In this document: positions 5,640-10,042 of the stretch, piece by piece | Layout: each line of letters opens with the position of its first letter | Numbering within the stretch: the stretch's first letter is position 1 | NCBI GenBank assembly: GCA_022706885.1 | Contig: JAKJBR010000001.1 | Coordinates: forward strand, 118,138-182,137 | Source: Bacillota bacterium | GTDB lineage: Bacteria; Bacillota; Clostridia; DUPQ01 | Direction of reading: 5' to 3' | DNA length: 64,000 nt | Program-made: the position numbers and the translations under genes | Notes under the pieces: model-generated | The model's input: only the letters and a program-made list of their open reading frames with translations | Databases searched by the model: none | What the model was told of the DNA's origin: nothing

Positions 5640-5993
5640 TTATTTATCTTCCTCAACCATTCTGTAAACTTTACCGATAGGTACAGTAAACATCAGGCCT
5701 ACACCGCTGCAGGTACAACCTCTGACTGTTTCACGAACGGCGGATACGGCCTTTTCCACCATCTGTTCATCTTTCAGGACGGTGAAAATTGTTTTGCTGT
5801 AAGGATGAGTATTACCCAGCATCATTCTTAATGTGCCGAACATAGGTATATCCTCATTTTTGGTATGAGCAATTGCTCTGCCCATTCCCTGGCTGTCTAT
5901 AATTGTGGCGCCGCCTATACCTTCTCTTAAAAATCCTGCAAGGATATCTTCCAAGCAACAGGTTTCATTTAATACTATGAACAAAACGTACAT
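5640..5993 (-). CDS. PII-like (GlnB/nitrogen-regulatory P-II superfamily-like) small signalling protein, immediately downstream of the antiporter gene
   Basis: 117 aa; ferredoxin-like fold pattern (M..L.IVL....LEDIL..L.E.GI.G.T..D..G.GR ... GVGLMFTVPI) reminiscent of PII proteins; 4-nt gap to upstream CPA gene. Confidence 0.5.
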   Translation of the reverse strand: MYVLFIVLNETCCLEDILAGFLREGIGGATIIDSQGMGRAIAHTKNEDIPMFGTLRMMLGNTHPYSKTIFTVLKDEQMVEKAVSAVRETVRGCTCSGVGLMFTVPIGKVYRMVEEDK

Positions 5994-5997
5994 AATC

Positions 5998-7257
5998 TCA
6001 CCCCTTATCTATTATACATGATTCACTTTTTTGTGAAGATACTTTACTTTTCTTTTTGCCTTTTCTGCGAGGCTTTCTGATCTTTTCTTCAATTCCTATC
6101 TCTCCCGCCTTCTTAAGCGCTATCTTTGCGAATATCGGTCCGCTTGTTTCATATATGAGAACGGAGAACATGATAATGGTATTGATGGCTACCGCATAAT
6201 CGGGAAGTTGCTGACGCACCAGTACCATAAGTCCTATGGATATGCCGCCTTGCGGAAGCAGTCCCAAACCCAGATATTTTCTTACAGCAGGTTCGGCTTT
6301 CACCATGGCTGCACCTGCCCAGGCACCCGCTATTTTTCCTAAACCTCTTGCCAGAACATAGGCAATACCCATCAGACCGACCGTTTTAAGTATCGAAAGA
6401 TCCAAGCTTGCACCGGCAAGTGTAAAGAAGAGTATATATATCGGCGCCGCAAAGCTGTTTACCGAATCAAATACTCTTATGGAGTTTTGCTGTATATTAA
6501 CTAAAACCGTACCCATAACTATACAGGTAAGCAGCGGAGACATATTCAAAAGAAGAGAGATTCCGGTCGCTACACCTATGGCTGCCAATGCTATTGCCTG
6601 AAGTTCGTCTCTTCCCGAGGCTTTTTGTGAAAGCCAGGATAATAATAAGCCCAACACGAAACCGATACCGACAGATCCCGCTATTTCAATAAGAGGACCG
6701 AATATCATGGAAGCAACCGATAACTGCTGCTTATATGTAACAATCTTAGCAACCGACAAGGCAATACCGAATACCACTATTCCGAAGACATCATCAAGAG
6801 CTACTACGGGGAGAATGGTTCTTGTGAGCGGACCCTTGGCGTTATACTGCTTCATTACCAATAATGTTGCTGCAGGAGCGGTAGCAGCCGACATGGAAGC
6901 AATTACTATACTGAATGCAAAAGGTTGTCTGAAAACAAAGAATAAAATGCAAAAAACCAATAACACCGCACCTATTACTTCCATAAGAGTGATTATGAAA
7001 ATGGATTTACCTATCTTTTTCATTTCTTTCAAGACAAATTCATTTCCTATACTGAAAGCAATAGCTGCCAATGCCAGTTCGTTTATAATGTTGAAGGATT
7101 GAACATCCGCGGGGCTAATAAAGTTAAAGAATGAAGGACCTAAAAGCAACCCGAATACCAGATAGCCGGAAACATTAGGCAACTTGACCAGTCCGGCTAC
7201 CCTTCCTCCTATTATTCCTACGACAAGAACAATAGCAATCTTCAGCAAAACATTCAT
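5998..7257 (-). CDS. cation:proton antiporter (CPA/Na+-H+ exchanger family)
   Basis: 419 aa polytopic membrane protein; N-terminal GYLVFGLLLGP motif typical of CPA1/CPA2 exchangers. Confidence 0.8.
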   Translation of the reverse strand: MNVLLKIAIVLVVGIIGGRVAGLVKLPNVSGYLVFGLLLGPSFFNFISPADVQSFNIINELALAAIAFSIGNEFVLKEMKKIGKSIFIITLMEVIGAVLLVFCILFFVFRQPFAFSIVIASMSAATAPAATLLVMKQYNAKGPLTRTILPVVALDDVFGIVVFGIALSVAKIVTYKQQLSVASMIFGPLIEIAGSVGIGFVLGLLLSWLSQKASGRDELQAIALAAIGVATGISLLLNMSPLLTCIVMGTVLVNIQQNSIRVFDSVNSFAAPIYILFFTLAGASLDLSILKTVGLMGIAYVLARGLGKIAGAWAGAAMVKAEPAVRKYLGLGLLPQGGISIGLMVLVRQQLPDYAVAINTIIMFSVLIYETSGPIFAKIALKKAGEIGIEEKIRKPRRKGKKKSKVSSQKSESCIIDKG

Positions 7258-7329
7258 ATAAGACCTCCCACAGTATATATTTCATATGCAGTCCATCATG
7301 TTTTTTGGCAACAACTTAACAAAGCGCAT

Positions 7330-7480
7330 AAAAATCATCATGTACTACATTGCTTGGTGCAATCCTATGGGATTAGCTGTCGGGTTTGGGCCACCAAGCT
7401 GCCCATCTTATCCAGATTCACCCCTTTTCGGTTGGTTCCCCCACTATCAAAACAGATATTCGGATATCCATAAAATAGTA
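7330..7480 (-). ncRNA. candidate cyclic-di-AMP (ydaO/kimA-type) riboswitch in the 5' leader of the CPA antiporter gene
   Basis: Minus-strand reading contains GUGGGGGAACCA ... AAGGGGUGAAUC ... ACCCGACAGCUAAUCC, resembling the conserved GGGGGA-CCA / GGGG-GAAUC / ACCCG-CCGA blocks of ydaO-type c-di-AMP riboswitches as I recall them; leader is 330 nt; boundaries approximate. Confidence 0.45.
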
Positions 7481-7508
7481 ACACAGAAAGCAGGTTAAGT
7501 CAATGACG

Positions 7509-7535
7509 GAGCACTATTGGTGCTCTGTGCTTTTT
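7509..7535 (+). terminator. terminator-like hairpin (GAGCAC-tattg-GTGCTC followed by TGTGCTTTTT) with no obvious upstream plus-strand gene
   Basis: 6-bp perfect stem plus U-rich tail read on + strand; lies between the riboswitch candidate and the lipoprotein gene. Confidence 0.35.
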
Positions 7536-7587: not shown

Positions 7588-8670
7588 CTACTTTTCCAAT
7601 TGAGCTAATACTTTAGCAACGGAATTGATTGTTGTGTCGCGATAACCGTAAAAGGTTAGAGAATTAACACTATCATAGAACTCAAGAATAATGAATATTT
7701 TGTTATACCTGTATACTTCTGTTGACGGACGGCCGAAAACACAATCGGTAGTATAAACAAACCCGTTGTTGTCGTCTGTCAAATCGTCTACAAAGGTAAT
7801 CTTTACCTTGTTGCCTTGGACAATACCTTGAGTATATTTTGTTAAAGCCAGATATTTACCGTATTCTTTAACGGTTTCCTCCAATTCATCCATCAGATCT
7901 ATTTCAAATAAAGGAATCTCGGACTTTGTATATTCTTTGAATTGACTTGTAATATTCTCTTTATAGTACTCATTAAATGCTTCTTGTATATAGTCGAAAT
8001 AAACAGGCATATGTATTTTAGGAATATAGAAACTGTCATCTTCATTATATGTATTCTTATCCATCTCGGAATAGTTGTCTTTCAGCAATGATGAAAACTC
8101 CTTAATGAAATCGGTTTTCTCTTCTGCTGTGAGAGAGGGGTTATAGAACTCAAACACTACATAGCATTTTTTGTACTTATACATCGACATGGTGTATTTA
8201 TCATTGTCGGAAGAATCAAAATATCTGGAATAAAGGCTGCATGTATTAGTGAACAAATATCCGCCGTTATCAAAAGTCTTATCCTGTACTATGCTTATGA
8301 TAATCACATTGTTCTTTACTTTAATAATACCTTGAAGAAAATGAGCTACAGCCATTATTCTACCATCATCAGTTATGCCGTCACCGTCATATCTGTTTGT
8401 TATCGGCATAAAAGGTTCCGACATGACCACAGTATATTCAAAAGGGTGTATCAACTGCTCTTTATAATGTTCGTTTAGTATTTCTTCATATGCACCTACA
8501 ACGGCAAGCTTGTACTTAACACTCAACTCATCATCCTCCTCAACATCATCGGTAACAACCGGAGGTGCGGAAATTTCTTCATTAGGGTTTGGTTGCACAT
8601 TATTATTACAACCGACCAATATTAAGAGTGACAATAAAAGCAACAAAAACTTAAATCTCTTTTTCAACAT
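7588..8670 (-). CDS. hypothetical lipoprotein
   Basis: 360 aa; signal peptide with lipobox LLILVGC; no recognisable catalytic motifs. Confidence 0.55.
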   Translation of the reverse strand: MLKKRFKFLLLLLSLLILVGCNNNVQPNPNEEISAPPVVTDDVEEDDELSVKYKLAVVGAYEEILNEHYKEQLIHPFEYTVVMSEPFMPITNRYDGDGITDDGRIMAVAHFLQGIIKVKNNVIIISIVQDKTFDNGGYLFTNTCSLYSRYFDSSDNDKYTMSMYKYKKCYVVFEFYNPSLTAEEKTDFIKEFSSLLKDNYSEMDKNTYNEDDSFYIPKIHMPVYFDYIQEAFNEYYKENITSQFKEYTKSEIPLFEIDLMDELEETVKEYGKYLALTKYTQGIVQGNKVKITFVDDLTDDNNGFVYTTDCVFGRPSTEVYRYNKIFIILEFYDSVNSLTFYGYRDTTINSVAKVLAQLEK

Positions 8671-8691: not shown

Positions 8692-9375
8692 TCAGTACTT
8701 CATGAACATAAGGAATATACTGAATGCCAGCATTATCTGTCCCAAATAGTAGGTAACCAGGTTTAAGACACGAGCCCTTAATGTCCTGCCTTCGGTTAGA
8801 ATACCGCGTGCTATCAGCCAGTCGGAAAACAGGAAAAGTACCGCACCCAGCACAACGGTGATACCGTGATAAAAACCGAAAGGTTTTGCAAATGCCAGTG
8901 AAACGGCTTTTACCGTCATAAAAGATATAGCGCTGCTGTACAGCAACATAGGTATTTTAAGCTCTTTAGCATCGTAGTTCATAAACCTGTAAACGAGCAG
9001 GATAGAACCCTCAAGCCCTATAAAAAGCAGAATATCCAACCAGGTAATTGGAACCAATATGGAAAAAGATACTATATAGCAGATTTGCGCAATAAAGAAG
9101 AATGCCACCCCTATAAGAAAGCTGTTCTTTATCTTTACCTCACTGATAAGGAAGAAGTCACCGAATATGGAAAAGAAAAGACCTGCGCACAAAAACAGCG
9201 CGGTTGCAGTGTAATTGCCGGTAAGTATAACCGACACAACGGCTGTAGCAAAAAACATAATGCTCGGAGCCGTCTTGGTTATCTTCTCACGAGGATTTTC
9301 CTTGAATATAATGTGATACAGATAAACGCACAACATTATGAAAAAAATTGCCAAACAAATAAATACACCTGTCAT
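8692..9375 (-). CDS. YhhN-family (lysoplasmalogenase-like, TMEM86) integral membrane protein
   Basis: ORF 8692..9717 trimmed to internal ATG at 9375 (MTGVFICLAIFF) because upstream part overlaps the NUDIX gene on the other strand and is low-complexity; polytopic, C-terminal LFLFSDWLIA motif typical of YhhN. Confidence 0.6.
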   Translation of the reverse strand: MTGVFICLAIFFIMLCVYLYHIIFKENPREKITKTAPSIMFFATAVVSVILTGNYTATALFLCAGLFFSIFGDFFLISEVKIKNSFLIGVAFFFIAQICYIVSFSILVPITWLDILLFIGLEGSILLVYRFMNYDAKELKIPMLLYSSAISFMTVKAVSLAFAKPFGFYHGITVVLGAVLFLFSDWLIARGILTEGRTLRARVLNLVTYYLGQIMLAFSIFLMFMKY

Positions 9376-9505
9376 ATTAACCTCTACCCAAATAGATTTT
9401 AACCTATACAGGCATATAAATGCAAATACTAAGCAAACTATTTTATATACACAATCATTTATAGAATCTTTTAGATGGTATAATGTATCGGTGAAGGTAA
9501 AGATT

Positions 9506-10042
9506 GTGGATATAAAAGAGAAAATAACGGATAGAAAAGTTATGTATAAAGGGAGAATTCTGGAGGTGGAAAAAGTAACCGCACTTCTTCCCGACGGAAA
9601 GGAAGTGTACCGGGATGTGATTCGGCACAGCGGTGCCTGTGCCATAGTGGCGCTGGACGAAGATATGAACATCATACTGGAGAAGCAGTACAGGATTGCT
9701 TTTGACGATATTCTCATTGAATTACCTGCAGGAAAAAAAGAAGAGGGCGAAGAGCCTTTGCAGTGCGCTGTAAGAGAACTGGAAGAAGAAACCGGTTATG
9801 TAGCCGATAAAATGACTCATATGATTACGGTAGCATCATCACCGGGTTTTTCCGATGAAGTGGTGCATATATTTTTAGCGGAAGGTCTTACCCGGACACA
9901 AATGAAATGGGATCAGGAAGAGCGGTTGATAGTATGGAAAGAACCGCTATCCGATGCTAAAAAAATGGTTATGGAAGGCAAGATAAAAAACGGACTGGCG
10001 GTTGCAGGTATATTGACTGCATGTCAGCTAAAGGGGATATAA
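9506..10042 (+). CDS. NUDIX hydrolase (ADP-ribose pyrophosphatase-like)
   Basis: Nudix box GKKEEGEEPLQCAVRELEEETG; start uncertain (GTG 9491/9506 or ATG 9542); stop overlaps next gene start (TAATG). Confidence 0.75.
   Translation: MDIKEKITDRKVMYKGRILEVEKVTALLPDGKEVYRDVIRHSGACAIVALDEDMNIILEKQYRIAFDDILIELPAGKKEEGEEPLQCAVRELEEETGYVADKMTHMITVASSPGFSDEVVHIFLAEGLTRTQMKWDQEERLIVWKEPLSDAKKMVMEGKIKNGLAVAGILTACQLKGI

Follow-up and report, generated by a model that had tools for sequence, protein, structure and literature searches.

A c-di-AMP-class riboswitch in the leader of a conserved NapA-type antiporter/P-II-like protein operon of Clostridia

On the minus strand of a 64-kb window of a Clostridia contig (the window being the whole stretch of DNA analysed), an aptamer of the c-di-AMP riboswitch class lies in the leader of a gene for a NapA-like cation/proton antiporter, and this gene is followed by one for a divergent P-II-family protein (Table 1). 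The overall explanation that we favor, and consider likely, is an operon with a c-di-AMP riboswitch, a NapA-type antiporter and a P-II-like regulatory subunit. As parts of this same likely explanation, 5640..7503 would be a single transcription unit comprising promoter, riboswitch, antiporter and P-II-like gene, and the riboswitch, antiporter and P-II-like protein would together be an ancient unit of Clostridia, Erysipelotrichia and Mollicutes. Among the second messengers of Firmicutes, c-di-AMP is the principal one for potassium and osmotic homeostasis. The kind of riboswitch is already known; many Firmicutes conserve the antiporter/P-II-like pairing, of which we found no description.

Table 1 Features of the riboswitch-antiporter-P-II-like locus, in window coordinates
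Feature	Position	Strand	Basis or remark
Predicted sigma-70-like promoter	7475..7503	-	Consensus scan, 9/12 matches plus TG
Promoter elements	-35 TTGACT 7503..7498; TG-extended -10 TACTAT 7480..7475	-	17-nt spacer
c-di-AMP riboswitch aptamer (RF00379, ydaO/kimA class)	7346..7475	-	cmscan
P1 helix	AUCC 7465..7462 with GGAU 7365..7362	-	
Aptamer helix	GUGGGG 7444..7439 with UCCCAU 7372..7367	-	
Aptamer conserved core ACCCGACAGCUAA	7385..7373	-	
Aptamer pseudoknot	GCUUGGUG 7399..7392 with CACCAAGC 7359..7352	-	
Long imperfect hairpin, -16.4 kcal/mol	7286..7350	-	MFE folds; starts immediately 3' of the pseudoknot strand
Ancestral terminator 3' strand and U-tract remnant AUGCGCUUUGUU	7329..7318	-	Enclosed by the long hairpin
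Shine-Dalgarno GGGAGG	7269..7264	-	Overlapped by CUGUGGGA, 7273..7266
NapA-like CPA2 cation/H+ antiporter, 419 aa	5998..7257	-	PF00999 Na_H_Exchanger
Divergent P-II-family protein, 117 aa	5640..5993	-	PF00543, AlphaFold model

The aptamer covers the entire RF00379 model (positions 1-134 of 134) with 66.8 bits, against a gathering score of 38, and an E value of 2.6e-13. It is also the sole gathering-level Rfam match in the 64-kb window, and these values together place it far beyond chance. A sequence-only reading of this DNA had suspected such a riboswitch in a 330-nt antiporter leader from the blocks GUGGGGGAACCA (starting at 7444), GGGGUGAAUC and ACCCGACAGCUAAUCC (starting at 7385). All three blocks are present on the minus strand, the leader length is borne out by the gap between the upstream-gene stop (7588) and the antiporter start (7257), and the covariance-model search that had been suggested as a check gave the significant match described here. 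Of the conserved core, the blocks CCGAAU, GGGGUGAAUC and ACCCGNCAGCUAA are each present. In the pseudoknot, which joins a hairpin loop to the 3' tail, GCUUGGUG complements CACCAAGC perfectly over 8 bp, and its core CUUGG/CCAAG is preserved in nearly all relatives. RNAalifold analysis of 32 antiporter-linked aptamers gave 26 consensus pairs, 10 of them with compensatory double changes. As far as sequence can establish it, the window element is confirmed as a genuine member of the c-di-AMP riboswitch class, with the binding of two c-di-AMP molecules, a property of the class, predicted. RNA-level control by such a riboswitch, as proposed earlier, is strongly supported by the RF00379 match, the covariation in the 32 aptamers and an arrangement conserved in several bacterial classes; at the window leader itself we infer control, in a direction that is uncertain. 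The element shares its full-length aptamer, helices, core and pseudoknot with the RF00379 riboswitches of Bacillus subtilis kimA and ktrAB and of B. thuringiensis kdpFABC, and like them it heads an operon for cation transport. Instead of a K+ importer, an osmolyte transporter or a cell-wall enzyme, the genes found here encode a NapA-type antiporter and a P-II-like protein.

The predicted promoter would start the transcript a few nucleotides 5' of the aptamer P1 helix, and a promoter immediately 5' of the aptamer was also found in close relatives. At the other end of the unit, the 117-aa open reading frame starts 4 nt past the antiporter stop codon, with a GGGG-rich ribosome-binding site inside the end of the antiporter gene; the P-II-like gene is probably translationally coupled to the antiporter.

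The antiporter matches PF00999 at 97.8 bits, in agreement with the earlier CPA assignment, contains no other domain and gives a weak match to the CPA2 model TIGR00932; its NCBI name is 'Sodium/hydrogen exchanger family protein' (OQC01618.1). It carries a 'DD' motif in TM5 (ALDDVFG), a lysine in TM10 (LGKIAG) and a Lys-rich C-terminal tail. Its best solved relative is NapA of Thermus thermophilus (4bwz/5bz2), an electrogenic CPA2 Na+/H+ antiporter. Although similarity to NapA is low (E 5e-10), the alignment spans almost the whole transmembrane domain and places ALDDVFG and LGKIAG over IDDVLG and LGKVLG, the DD and K positions of which we take to be D156/D157/K305. The window protein differs from NapA in the Lys-rich tail and in a glutamine (GLLPQGGI) in place of the arginine of GMAPRGEV. 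Its ion specificity would presumably be Na+(Li+/K+)/H+. A domain search found no RCK, KTN or TrkA domain in the 419-aa antiporter or in the proteins of its neighbours. To our knowledge, the known c-di-AMP targets among cation/proton antiporters, CpaA and KhtTU, all use RCK domains. The operon resembles CpaA of Staphylococcus aureus and KhtTU of B. subtilis in having a CPA2-type antiporter under c-di-AMP control, here putative, but differs from them in that no RCK domain is fused or neighbouring, the control would be exerted on the RNA and the accessory protein adopts a P-II rather than an RCK fold.

The match of the 117-aa protein to the P-II family PF00543 is marginal in itself (28.7 bits versus a cutoff of 25); all 34 homologues match the same family, with a best E value of 7.7e-9. 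Its AlphaFold model has the P-II fold, a double beta-alpha-beta ferredoxin-like arrangement with a T-loop and a B-loop. The sequence-only reading was correct in calling a P-II-like protein at a 4-nt spacing, but its further suggestion of a DarA/PstA- or SbtB-like receptor is not supported. None of the 34 family members matches the DarA family PF06153, even at E <= 10. DarA/PstA proteins have a short T-loop and a long B-loop; the present family shows the opposite, a long T-loop with an ordinary B-loop, and has a fixed genomic partner. The likeness that remains is that of small Firmicutes P-II-fold proteins with a link to c-di-AMP, made here through the riboswitch regulon. As for SbtB, the family lacks its C-terminal CGPxGC R-loop and the neighbouring gene does not encode SbtA. 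Canonical GlnB/GlnK proteins bind ATP and 2-oxoglutarate through residues that we take to be R38, Q39, K90, R101 and R103, and presumably carry the C-terminal signature G-[DY]-G-[KR]-[IV]-[FW]. The 117-aa protein lacks these binding residues and this signature, as well as the ~19-residue T-loop with a Tyr51 or Ser49 site. When the family is aligned with Thermus P-II, the signature region reads GxG[LF]MF, with L/F in place of K90; there is no conservation of R101 or R103, and R38/Q39 are largely missing. Conservation does extend to residues aligned with the canonical nucleotide cleft (G28, T30, G36, G97xG99 and F102), and the T-loop equivalent between beta2 and beta3 extends over ~31 residues with conserved DSQGMG...PLFG...HPYSKTIF motifs. 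Its sequence places the protein on a divergent branch off canonical P-II, outside both DarA/PstA and SbtB. The family comprises 452 clusters at 50% identity, and its proteins are named 'hypothetical' by NCBI.

Relatives of the 117-aa protein are encoded in at least 332 species genomes. Of the 80 best loci, 70 have the antiporter gene directly upstream of the P-II-like gene and 3 have it directly downstream; 4 lack it and 3 sit at contig ends. The two genes are thus neighbours in 73 of 77 informative loci, which come from different species. Of the 61 loci that offer 350 nt of flank or more, 35 have RF00379 before the antiporter, as do three further, truncated loci. The other 26 of the 61 operons have no riboswitch, and a core-motif search found no cryptic aptamer in them. 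The riboswitch also precedes the operon in Acholeplasma vituli (91 bits) and in an Erysipelotrichia-like contig (81 bits), where the proteins are 38-43% identical, and in Acetivibrio straminisolvens it lies directly before a solitary P-II-like gene. Tandem duplications of the antiporter/P-II-like pair occur at three loci (L030, L077 and L089). A search of 1.8 billion representatives yielded no natural antiporter/P-II-like fusion: two candidates (P0103 and P0143) are truncated or frameshifted calls across the gene junction, and in a third (P0108) gene calling has probably merged the P-II-like gene with the neighbouring prmC. The only real-looking fusion joins EIIA-2 to a P-II-like domain (P0222).

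Most riboswitch-bearing relatives have the aptamer-then-terminator layout of kdp. In at least 29 of 38 antiporter-linked relatives, a hairpin of -7 to -19 kcal/mol followed by U4-U8 comes directly after the pseudoknot strand, and the Acholeplasma leader also has a terminator after its aptamer. A candidate anti-terminator, in which the terminator 5' strand GC..UGAC pairs with the core GUCAGC, appeared in 12 of 29 nascent-transcript folds. The same architecture in the B. thuringiensis kdp leader is an experimentally validated OFF switch (PMC6488665), and every c-di-AMP riboswitch with a reported mechanism in the literature searched is OFF. We infer from this layout that the aptamer-terminator relatives are OFF switches. 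In these terminator-bearing members, high c-di-AMP (K+-replete conditions, low osmotic stress) would turn the operon off, and low c-di-AMP (K+ limitation, hyperosmotic or salt stress) would allow it to be made, which fits a Na+(Li+/K+)/H+ exchanger needed in ionic stress.

The window leader departs from this layout. A consensus scan and folding of every U-run context found no intrinsic terminator in it; the 5' strand of the ancestral terminator is mutated and its U-tract is interrupted (CUUUGUU). The position at which relatives carry a canonical terminator is homologous to that of the long imperfect hairpin of the window, which shows one compensatory change relative to the variant L002 (AUGUAGU:ACUGCAU versus AUGUAAU:AUUACAU). 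In contrast to the known RF00379 leaders, therefore, an eroded terminator is accompanied here by the long hairpin and by a potential anti-Shine-Dalgarno (anti-SD) helix, since CUGUGGGA can form 8 bp with UCCCAUAG (7372..7365), the 3' strand of the aptamer. Because the leader has no terminator, OFF control at the window locus would be assigned purely by homology, and modelling of SD accessibility points weakly the other way (unpaired probability 0.25 free, 0.50 with the aptamer locked). The 5' strand of the terminator has decayed, and the aptamer 3' strand would pair with the 5' half of the SD. As this is the only strong alternative helix, any remaining regulation in the window lineage is most likely translational; and since the strongest alternative pairing now reaches the SD while the terminator is eroded, the direction of control in this lineage is uncertain.

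One reading of these features is that the window lineage, comprising the window locus (WIN) and the variants L001, L002 and L003, has had its riboswitch rewired into a translational ON switch. Without ligand, UCCCAUAG would pair with CUGUGGGA and mask the SD, and the c-di-AMP-bound aptamer would hold the strand and free the ribosome-binding site. The anti-SD duplex is predicted by RNAduplex at -13.4 kcal/mol in all four variants, compared with about -5.5 to -6.6 kcal/mol in terminator-bearing main-clade relatives; it forms in the unconstrained MFE structure of all four, and the chance of its four extra pairs is about 0.03. A G.U pair of this helix in WIN is an A-U pair in L003, and across the four variants the SD unpaired probability rises from 0.12-0.28 in the free state to 0.25-0.50 when the aptamer is locked. 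Loss of the ancestral terminator also speaks for such a switch. L003 may add ON-type anti-termination, because its UCCCAUAG-equivalent strand has a second possible partner in AUUUUUGUGGG, which precedes U6 (-12.2 kcal/mol). For a K+ exporter, ON logic would make sense, because c-di-AMP is reported to activate CpaA and to accelerate its K+ export (PMC6488665); most operons described here, unlike CpaA, are predicted to be repressed. However, with only four sequence variants covariation is minimal, and a clade-specific pattern scan of the metagenome collection returned only the same four and one chance match. Across 38 loci there is no covariation between aptamer strand and SD (own pairs -8.0 versus swapped pairs -7.5 kcal/mol), and any C-rich aptamer strand is partly anti-SD by composition. 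Start-codon accessibility moves in the opposite direction in WIN and L001, dropping from 0.73-0.80 to 0.33 when the aptamer is locked, and the orthologous operons are OFF-type, as are the c-di-AMP riboswitches of reported mechanism. We therefore regard conversion to an ON switch as unlikely. Still further down in our estimation, and very unlikely, is that the window riboswitch is a decaying relic whose aptamer may fold but exerts no control, leaving the operon effectively constitutive. The mutated terminator strand and interrupted U-tract would be expected of a relic, at 66.8 bits the aptamer scores towards the bottom of the relatives' range (44 to 93), and many related operons function without any riboswitch. 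Yet the conserved core blocks and the extended 8-bp pseudoknot are all intact. Many positions separate the WIN aptamer from that of L001, and where helix-closing pairs differ, pairing is preserved (GGGC/GCCC to GAGU/GCUC), which argues for continuing selection on aptamer structure. Decay is also at odds with the long hairpin and anti-SD helix being common to three diverged lineages, in which the P-II-like protein shares 81-83% identity with that of the window.

At the protein level, the P-II-like protein probably partners the antiporter and regulates it. The pairs GlnK-AmtB and SbtB-SbtA suggest, by analogy, that it would most likely be a cytoplasmic regulatory subunit, supplying in trans the nucleotide sensing that RCK domains give CpaA and KhtTU; both the physical interaction and the ligand are putative. 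As in those pairs, the gene for a small P-II-fold protein stands immediately next to one for a membrane transporter; conserved here too is the T-loop, the partner-binding element of GlnK and SbtB. SbtA and Na+/H+ exchangers belong to the same CPA/AT transporter clan in Pfam. AmtB and SbtA are trimers, as are P-II proteins themselves, but the CPA2 partner should be a dimer, in line with descriptions of NapA and other CPA2 antiporters, so that a GlnK-style plug is not an obvious geometric fit. The protein also differs from GlnK and SbtB in its T-loop equivalent (~31 versus ~19 residues) and in lacking both the canonical ATP/2-oxoglutarate residues and the redox R-loop of SbtB.

We also considered two-tier control, in which the P-II-like protein is itself a c-di-AMP receptor that gates the antiporter, so that the same messenger acts on transcript and protein. 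In three bacterial classes the P-II-like gene lies within the regulon of c-di-AMP riboswitches, and in A. straminisolvens the riboswitch is followed by this gene alone. Positions aligned to the adenine-nucleotide cleft are conserved, and the missing triphosphate-binding residues (K90, R101, R103 and R38/Q39) are compatible with a ligand without a triphosphate. The antiporter is also without RCK_C, the domain by which CpaA binds c-di-AMP. Other P-II-like proteins, DarA/PstA and SbtB, are reported c-di-AMP binders (PMC4475381 and a preprint). Even so, we hold two-tier control to be somewhat unlikely. A broader and doubtful, though possible, reading is that the 117-aa protein adds a third class to the P-II/transporter partnerships known from GlnK-AmtB and SbtB-SbtA. 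An adenine-nucleotide-sensing subunit (possibly sensing c-di-AMP) would gate a NapA-type antiporter through its enlarged T-loop in place of RCK, with RNA-level c-di-AMP wiring in Clostridia, Erysipelotrichia and Mollicutes; as a further twist, the riboswitch of the window lineage may have been converted to an ON-type c-di-AMP switch.

Neither a P-II-like/CPA2 pair nor a c-di-AMP riboswitch before such an operon is described in the literature searched; earlier riboswitch gene-association tables lay outside this search and may hold a brief mention of an antiporter. Should none of our inferences hold, what is left is a further, correctly assigned member of a familiar class of riboswitches. The eroded terminator and anti-SD helix of the window lineage constitute a small natural experiment in expression-platform rewiring. 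More broadly, the analysis defines a widespread operon of an RCK-less NapA-type antiporter and an uncharacterised P-II-family protein, with a riboswitch in over half of the assessable cases. It suggests a candidate function for proteins listed as 'hypothetical' by NCBI and provides a testable hypothesis for a new P-II/transporter regulatory pair. It would also extend the c-di-AMP regulon to Na+/H+-type exchange, tying sodium extrusion or pH control to the K+/osmolyte signal.

A c-di-AMP riboswitch was predicted in the antiporter leader by the sequence-only reading, whose description of a 330-nt gap carrying GUGGGGGAACCA, GGGGUGAAUC and ACCCGACAGCUAAUCC on the minus strand is accurate. Supporting this prediction, a covariance-model search matched RF00379 with 66.8 bits (threshold 38, E = 2.6e-13) over model positions 1-134 of 134, the sole gathering-level match in an Rfam scan of the whole 64-kb window. 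RNAalifold analysis of 32 aptamers preceding related operons recovered the class helices; it gave 26 consensus pairs, with double compensatory changes in 10 of them, and in the window GCUUGGUG and CACCAAGC form a perfect 8-bp pseudoknot. Moreover, the window aptamer differs at many positions from that of L001, the closest relative, despite near-identical proteins (antiporter 99%, P-II-like 97% identical). In one helix the change from GGGC/GCCC to GAGU/GCUC keeps the pairing, which argues that the aptamer structure is under continuing selection. Judged by sequence comparison, the window aptamer is real and selected; as a riboswitch it is nothing unusual, since its class is well studied and its biology known.

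Both protein assignments of the earlier reading were also sustained at the family level; the second-messenger receptor role that it proposed for the small protein is a hypothesis, so that its interpretation is half right. The proposed CPA antiporter matches the Na+/H+-exchanger family PF00999 (97.8 bits), and the domain search found no other domain in it; specifically, it lacks the RCK/KTN domain that is present in CpaA and KefC. Among solved structures, its nearest match by sequence is NapA of Thermus thermophilus (4bwz, 5bz2; E 5e-10), with an alignment that covers nearly the whole membrane domain and places ALDDVFG and LGKIAG on IDDVLG and LGKVLG. The NapA positions aligned to the window DD and K are D156/D157 and K305, which in electrogenic CPA2 exchangers bind the ion and the proton. 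The 117-aa protein encoded 4 nt past the antiporter narrowly clears the P-II model of Pfam, at 28.7 bits against a cutoff of 25, and clearly belongs to the P-II superfamily; membership of DarA/PstA or SbtB did not hold, and the protein fails the defining tests for these as well as for canonical GlnB/GlnK. Both window proteins are identical to those of 'Firmicutes bacterium ADurb.Bin099', named 'hypothetical protein' (OQC01617.1) and 'Sodium/hydrogen exchanger family protein' (OQC01618.1) by NCBI.

Features of the antiporter/P-II-like locus and of related loci (window positions unless a locus is named)
Feature	Position	Strand	Remarks
P-II-like ORF	5640..5993	minus	117 aa; begins 4 nt past antiporter stop codon
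Antiporter ORF	5998..7257	minus	419 aa; PF00999
Intergenic leader	between upstream gene stop 7588 and antiporter start 7257	minus	330 nt
Segment complementary to aptamer 3' strand	7273..7266	minus	CUGUGGGA
Imperfect hairpin	7350..7286	minus	65 nt; -16.4 kcal/mol
Interrupted U-tract	7329..7318	minus	AUGCGCUUUGUU
RF00379 aptamer	7346..7475	minus
Pseudoknot strands	7399..7392 with 7359..7352	minus	GCUUGGUG, CACCAAGC
Aptamer 3' strand	7372..7365	minus	UCCCAUAG
Sigma-70-like promoter	7503..7475	minus	TTGACT, 17 nt, TG-extended TACTAT; directly 5' of aptamer
Antisense ORF	7286..7498	plus	70 aa
GC-rich hairpin	7506..7528	plus	10 bp
Upstream gene	7588..8670	minus	360 aa; lipoprotein-like signal sequence (LVGC), no Pfam match
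ORF	8692..9717	minus	341 aa
ORF	9338..10042	plus	234 aa
Fluoride riboswitches	L037:1976-2035, L045:2108-2167, L047:2117-2176	minus
Second leader element	L011:2640-2729, L014:2640-2720, L005:2690-2734 and similar loci

The GC-rich hairpin lies between the upstream gene on the minus strand and the promoter of the riboswitch, and a T-run follows it in the plus-strand reading alone. It would stop plus-strand transcription antisense to the antiporter operon; alternatively, as a hairpin lacking a U-tract, it may mark the upstream gene's 3' end. Just before it ends a 70-aa ORF exactly antisense to the riboswitch leader, which is probably spurious. Further upstream, the 341-aa and 234-aa ORFs share ~380 nt; in the former, the first third is of low complexity and probably non-coding, and the membrane-protein gene in this ORF probably begins at an internal Met.

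Relatives of the 117-aa protein are encoded in 332 genomes (pattern-plus-tblastn scan, one genome per species), and an exhaustive profile search resolved the family into 452 clusters at 50% identity (E <= 1e-10). Among the best 80 loci, an antiporter homologue lies directly upstream of the P-II-like gene in 70 and directly downstream in 3; 4 have none despite room and 3 lie at contig ends, giving adjacency in 73 of 77 informative loci. When all 80 were scanned at Rfam's own thresholds, RF00379 preceded the antiporter, in the operon's orientation, in 35 of those 61 loci whose upstream flank measured 350 nt or more; 3 truncated loci had it too. A core-motif search of the 26 riboswitch-negative loci did not find even the aptamer core motifs. 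The arrangement holds in the most distant relatives examined, Acholeplasma vituli, where RF00379 (91 bits) and the antiporter are followed across a 1-nt gap by the P-II-like gene, and an Erysipelotrichia-like contig (RF00379 at 81 bits). In several Clostridium species, a fluoride riboswitch lies on the opposite strand just upstream of a riboswitch-less antiporter/P-II-like operon.

Three loci carry tandem duplications of the pair (L030, 3992-7282; L077; L089, 1727-5188) with paralogues 36-39% identical, which suggests that each small protein is matched to its own antiporter and works with it. In Acetivibrio straminisolvens (L072:3794-4351), riboswitch and terminator directly precede a P-II-like gene that stands alone, no antiporter being encoded in its vicinity; in sister species (L038, L041) a plain promoter holds that position. 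The small protein is therefore a c-di-AMP regulon member in its own right. We infer that it would sense an adenine-containing ligand, not Mg-ATP/2-oxoglutarate, and would act on the adjacent antiporter via its T-loop; a weak point of this reading is that P-II proteins are trimeric and a CPA2 exchanger should be dimeric, so that their symmetries are expected to differ. The one real domain fusion found, P0222 (a 289-aa library protein from a high-GC organism), joins PTS EIIA-2 (PtsN-like, Ntr-type) to a P-II-like domain of this family, and is suggestive only because EIIA-Ntr regulates K+ transporters in proteobacteria. Cysteine pairs in ETCCLED and GCTCSG (residues 12-13, 93-95) occur in the window-clade P-II-like proteins and are absent in the rest of the family. 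SbtB has been reported to use a redox-sensitive cysteine pair, and by analogy a redox input to the window-clade proteins is conceivable.

Of the 38 antiporter-linked relatives, at least 29 have a canonical intrinsic terminator directly past the pseudoknot strand, at a fixed distance, with the consensus GCGUAUGAC, an inner hairpin, GUUAUGCGC and U4-U8 (-7 to -19 kcal/mol); Acholeplasma has a compact version, GCGUAUAAACCACUAUGCG and then U8. This aptamer-then-terminator layout is that of the experimentally validated B. thuringiensis kdp OFF switch, in which a spacer of ~140 nt follows the terminator (PMC6488665). In 12 of 29 nascent-transcript folds, the ligand-binding core GUCAGC is paired to the 5' strand of the terminator (GC..UGAC), plausibly as a weak anti-terminator that bound ligand would remove. 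Because of the kdp-like layout and this candidate anti-terminator, we infer by analogy an OFF logic, expression lowered upon c-di-AMP binding, for the family as a whole. Main-clade leaders also carry a second conserved element past the terminator, AAAGCGYUAAAC and a hairpin CGUCAUA...UAUGAUG abutting the Shine-Dalgarno (SD) sequence. Both terminator strands are complementary to the 5' part of this element, so that read-through transcripts could refold, and the element may form a second, translational control layer. In L020 (2250-2698), the 449-nt leader from aptamer/terminator to start codon is full of tandem ~44-nt repeat copies.

The window's lineage comprises four sequence variants (the window, L001, L002 and L003), and a clade-specific metagenome scan found no others. 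Here the terminator 5' strand is mutated (AGCAAUGUAGUAC), the U-tract is interrupted, and neither a consensus scan nor folding detected a terminator; a 65-nt hairpin, with one compensatory change between the window and L002, now begins right past the pseudoknot strand. The aptamer 3' strand is complementary over 8 bp to a segment overlapping the SD sequence GGGAGG. This helix reaches -13.4 kcal/mol in all four variants. The corresponding value is about -5.5 to -6.6 for main-clade relatives that have the terminator, and about -12 to -13 kcal/mol for a few relatives whose leaders are short or rich in G. The helix is present in every unconstrained MFE fold, and the chance probability of four pairs beyond the trivial CCC:GGG match is ~0.03. 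Across the family, no covariation was found between the aptamer 3' strand and the SD segment. When the covariation-supported aptamer structure was held fixed to mimic the state with bound ligand, SD accessibility rose from 0.12-0.28 to 0.25-0.50, and start-codon accessibility dropped in the window and L001. On these folding models, regulation at the window locus, if retained, would be translational.

As for its sign, homology would indicate OFF, and the local pairing hints at ON, that is, raised expression upon binding. OFF logic would suit a Na+-expelling exchanger, because such an exchanger would help during K+ limitation or salt stress, conditions in which c-di-AMP is low; ON logic would suit a K+ exporter. 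In reviews, this riboswitch class is associated with genes for K+ and amino-acid transport, osmoprotection and the cell wall, and no description of the antiporter/P-II-like pair was found in the searchable literature, although earlier ydaO gene tables could list antiporters. The conserved partnership of an RCK-less antiporter with a P-II-like protein, recurrently captured by c-di-AMP riboswitches, is a new variation on known systems and makes a good experimental lead.
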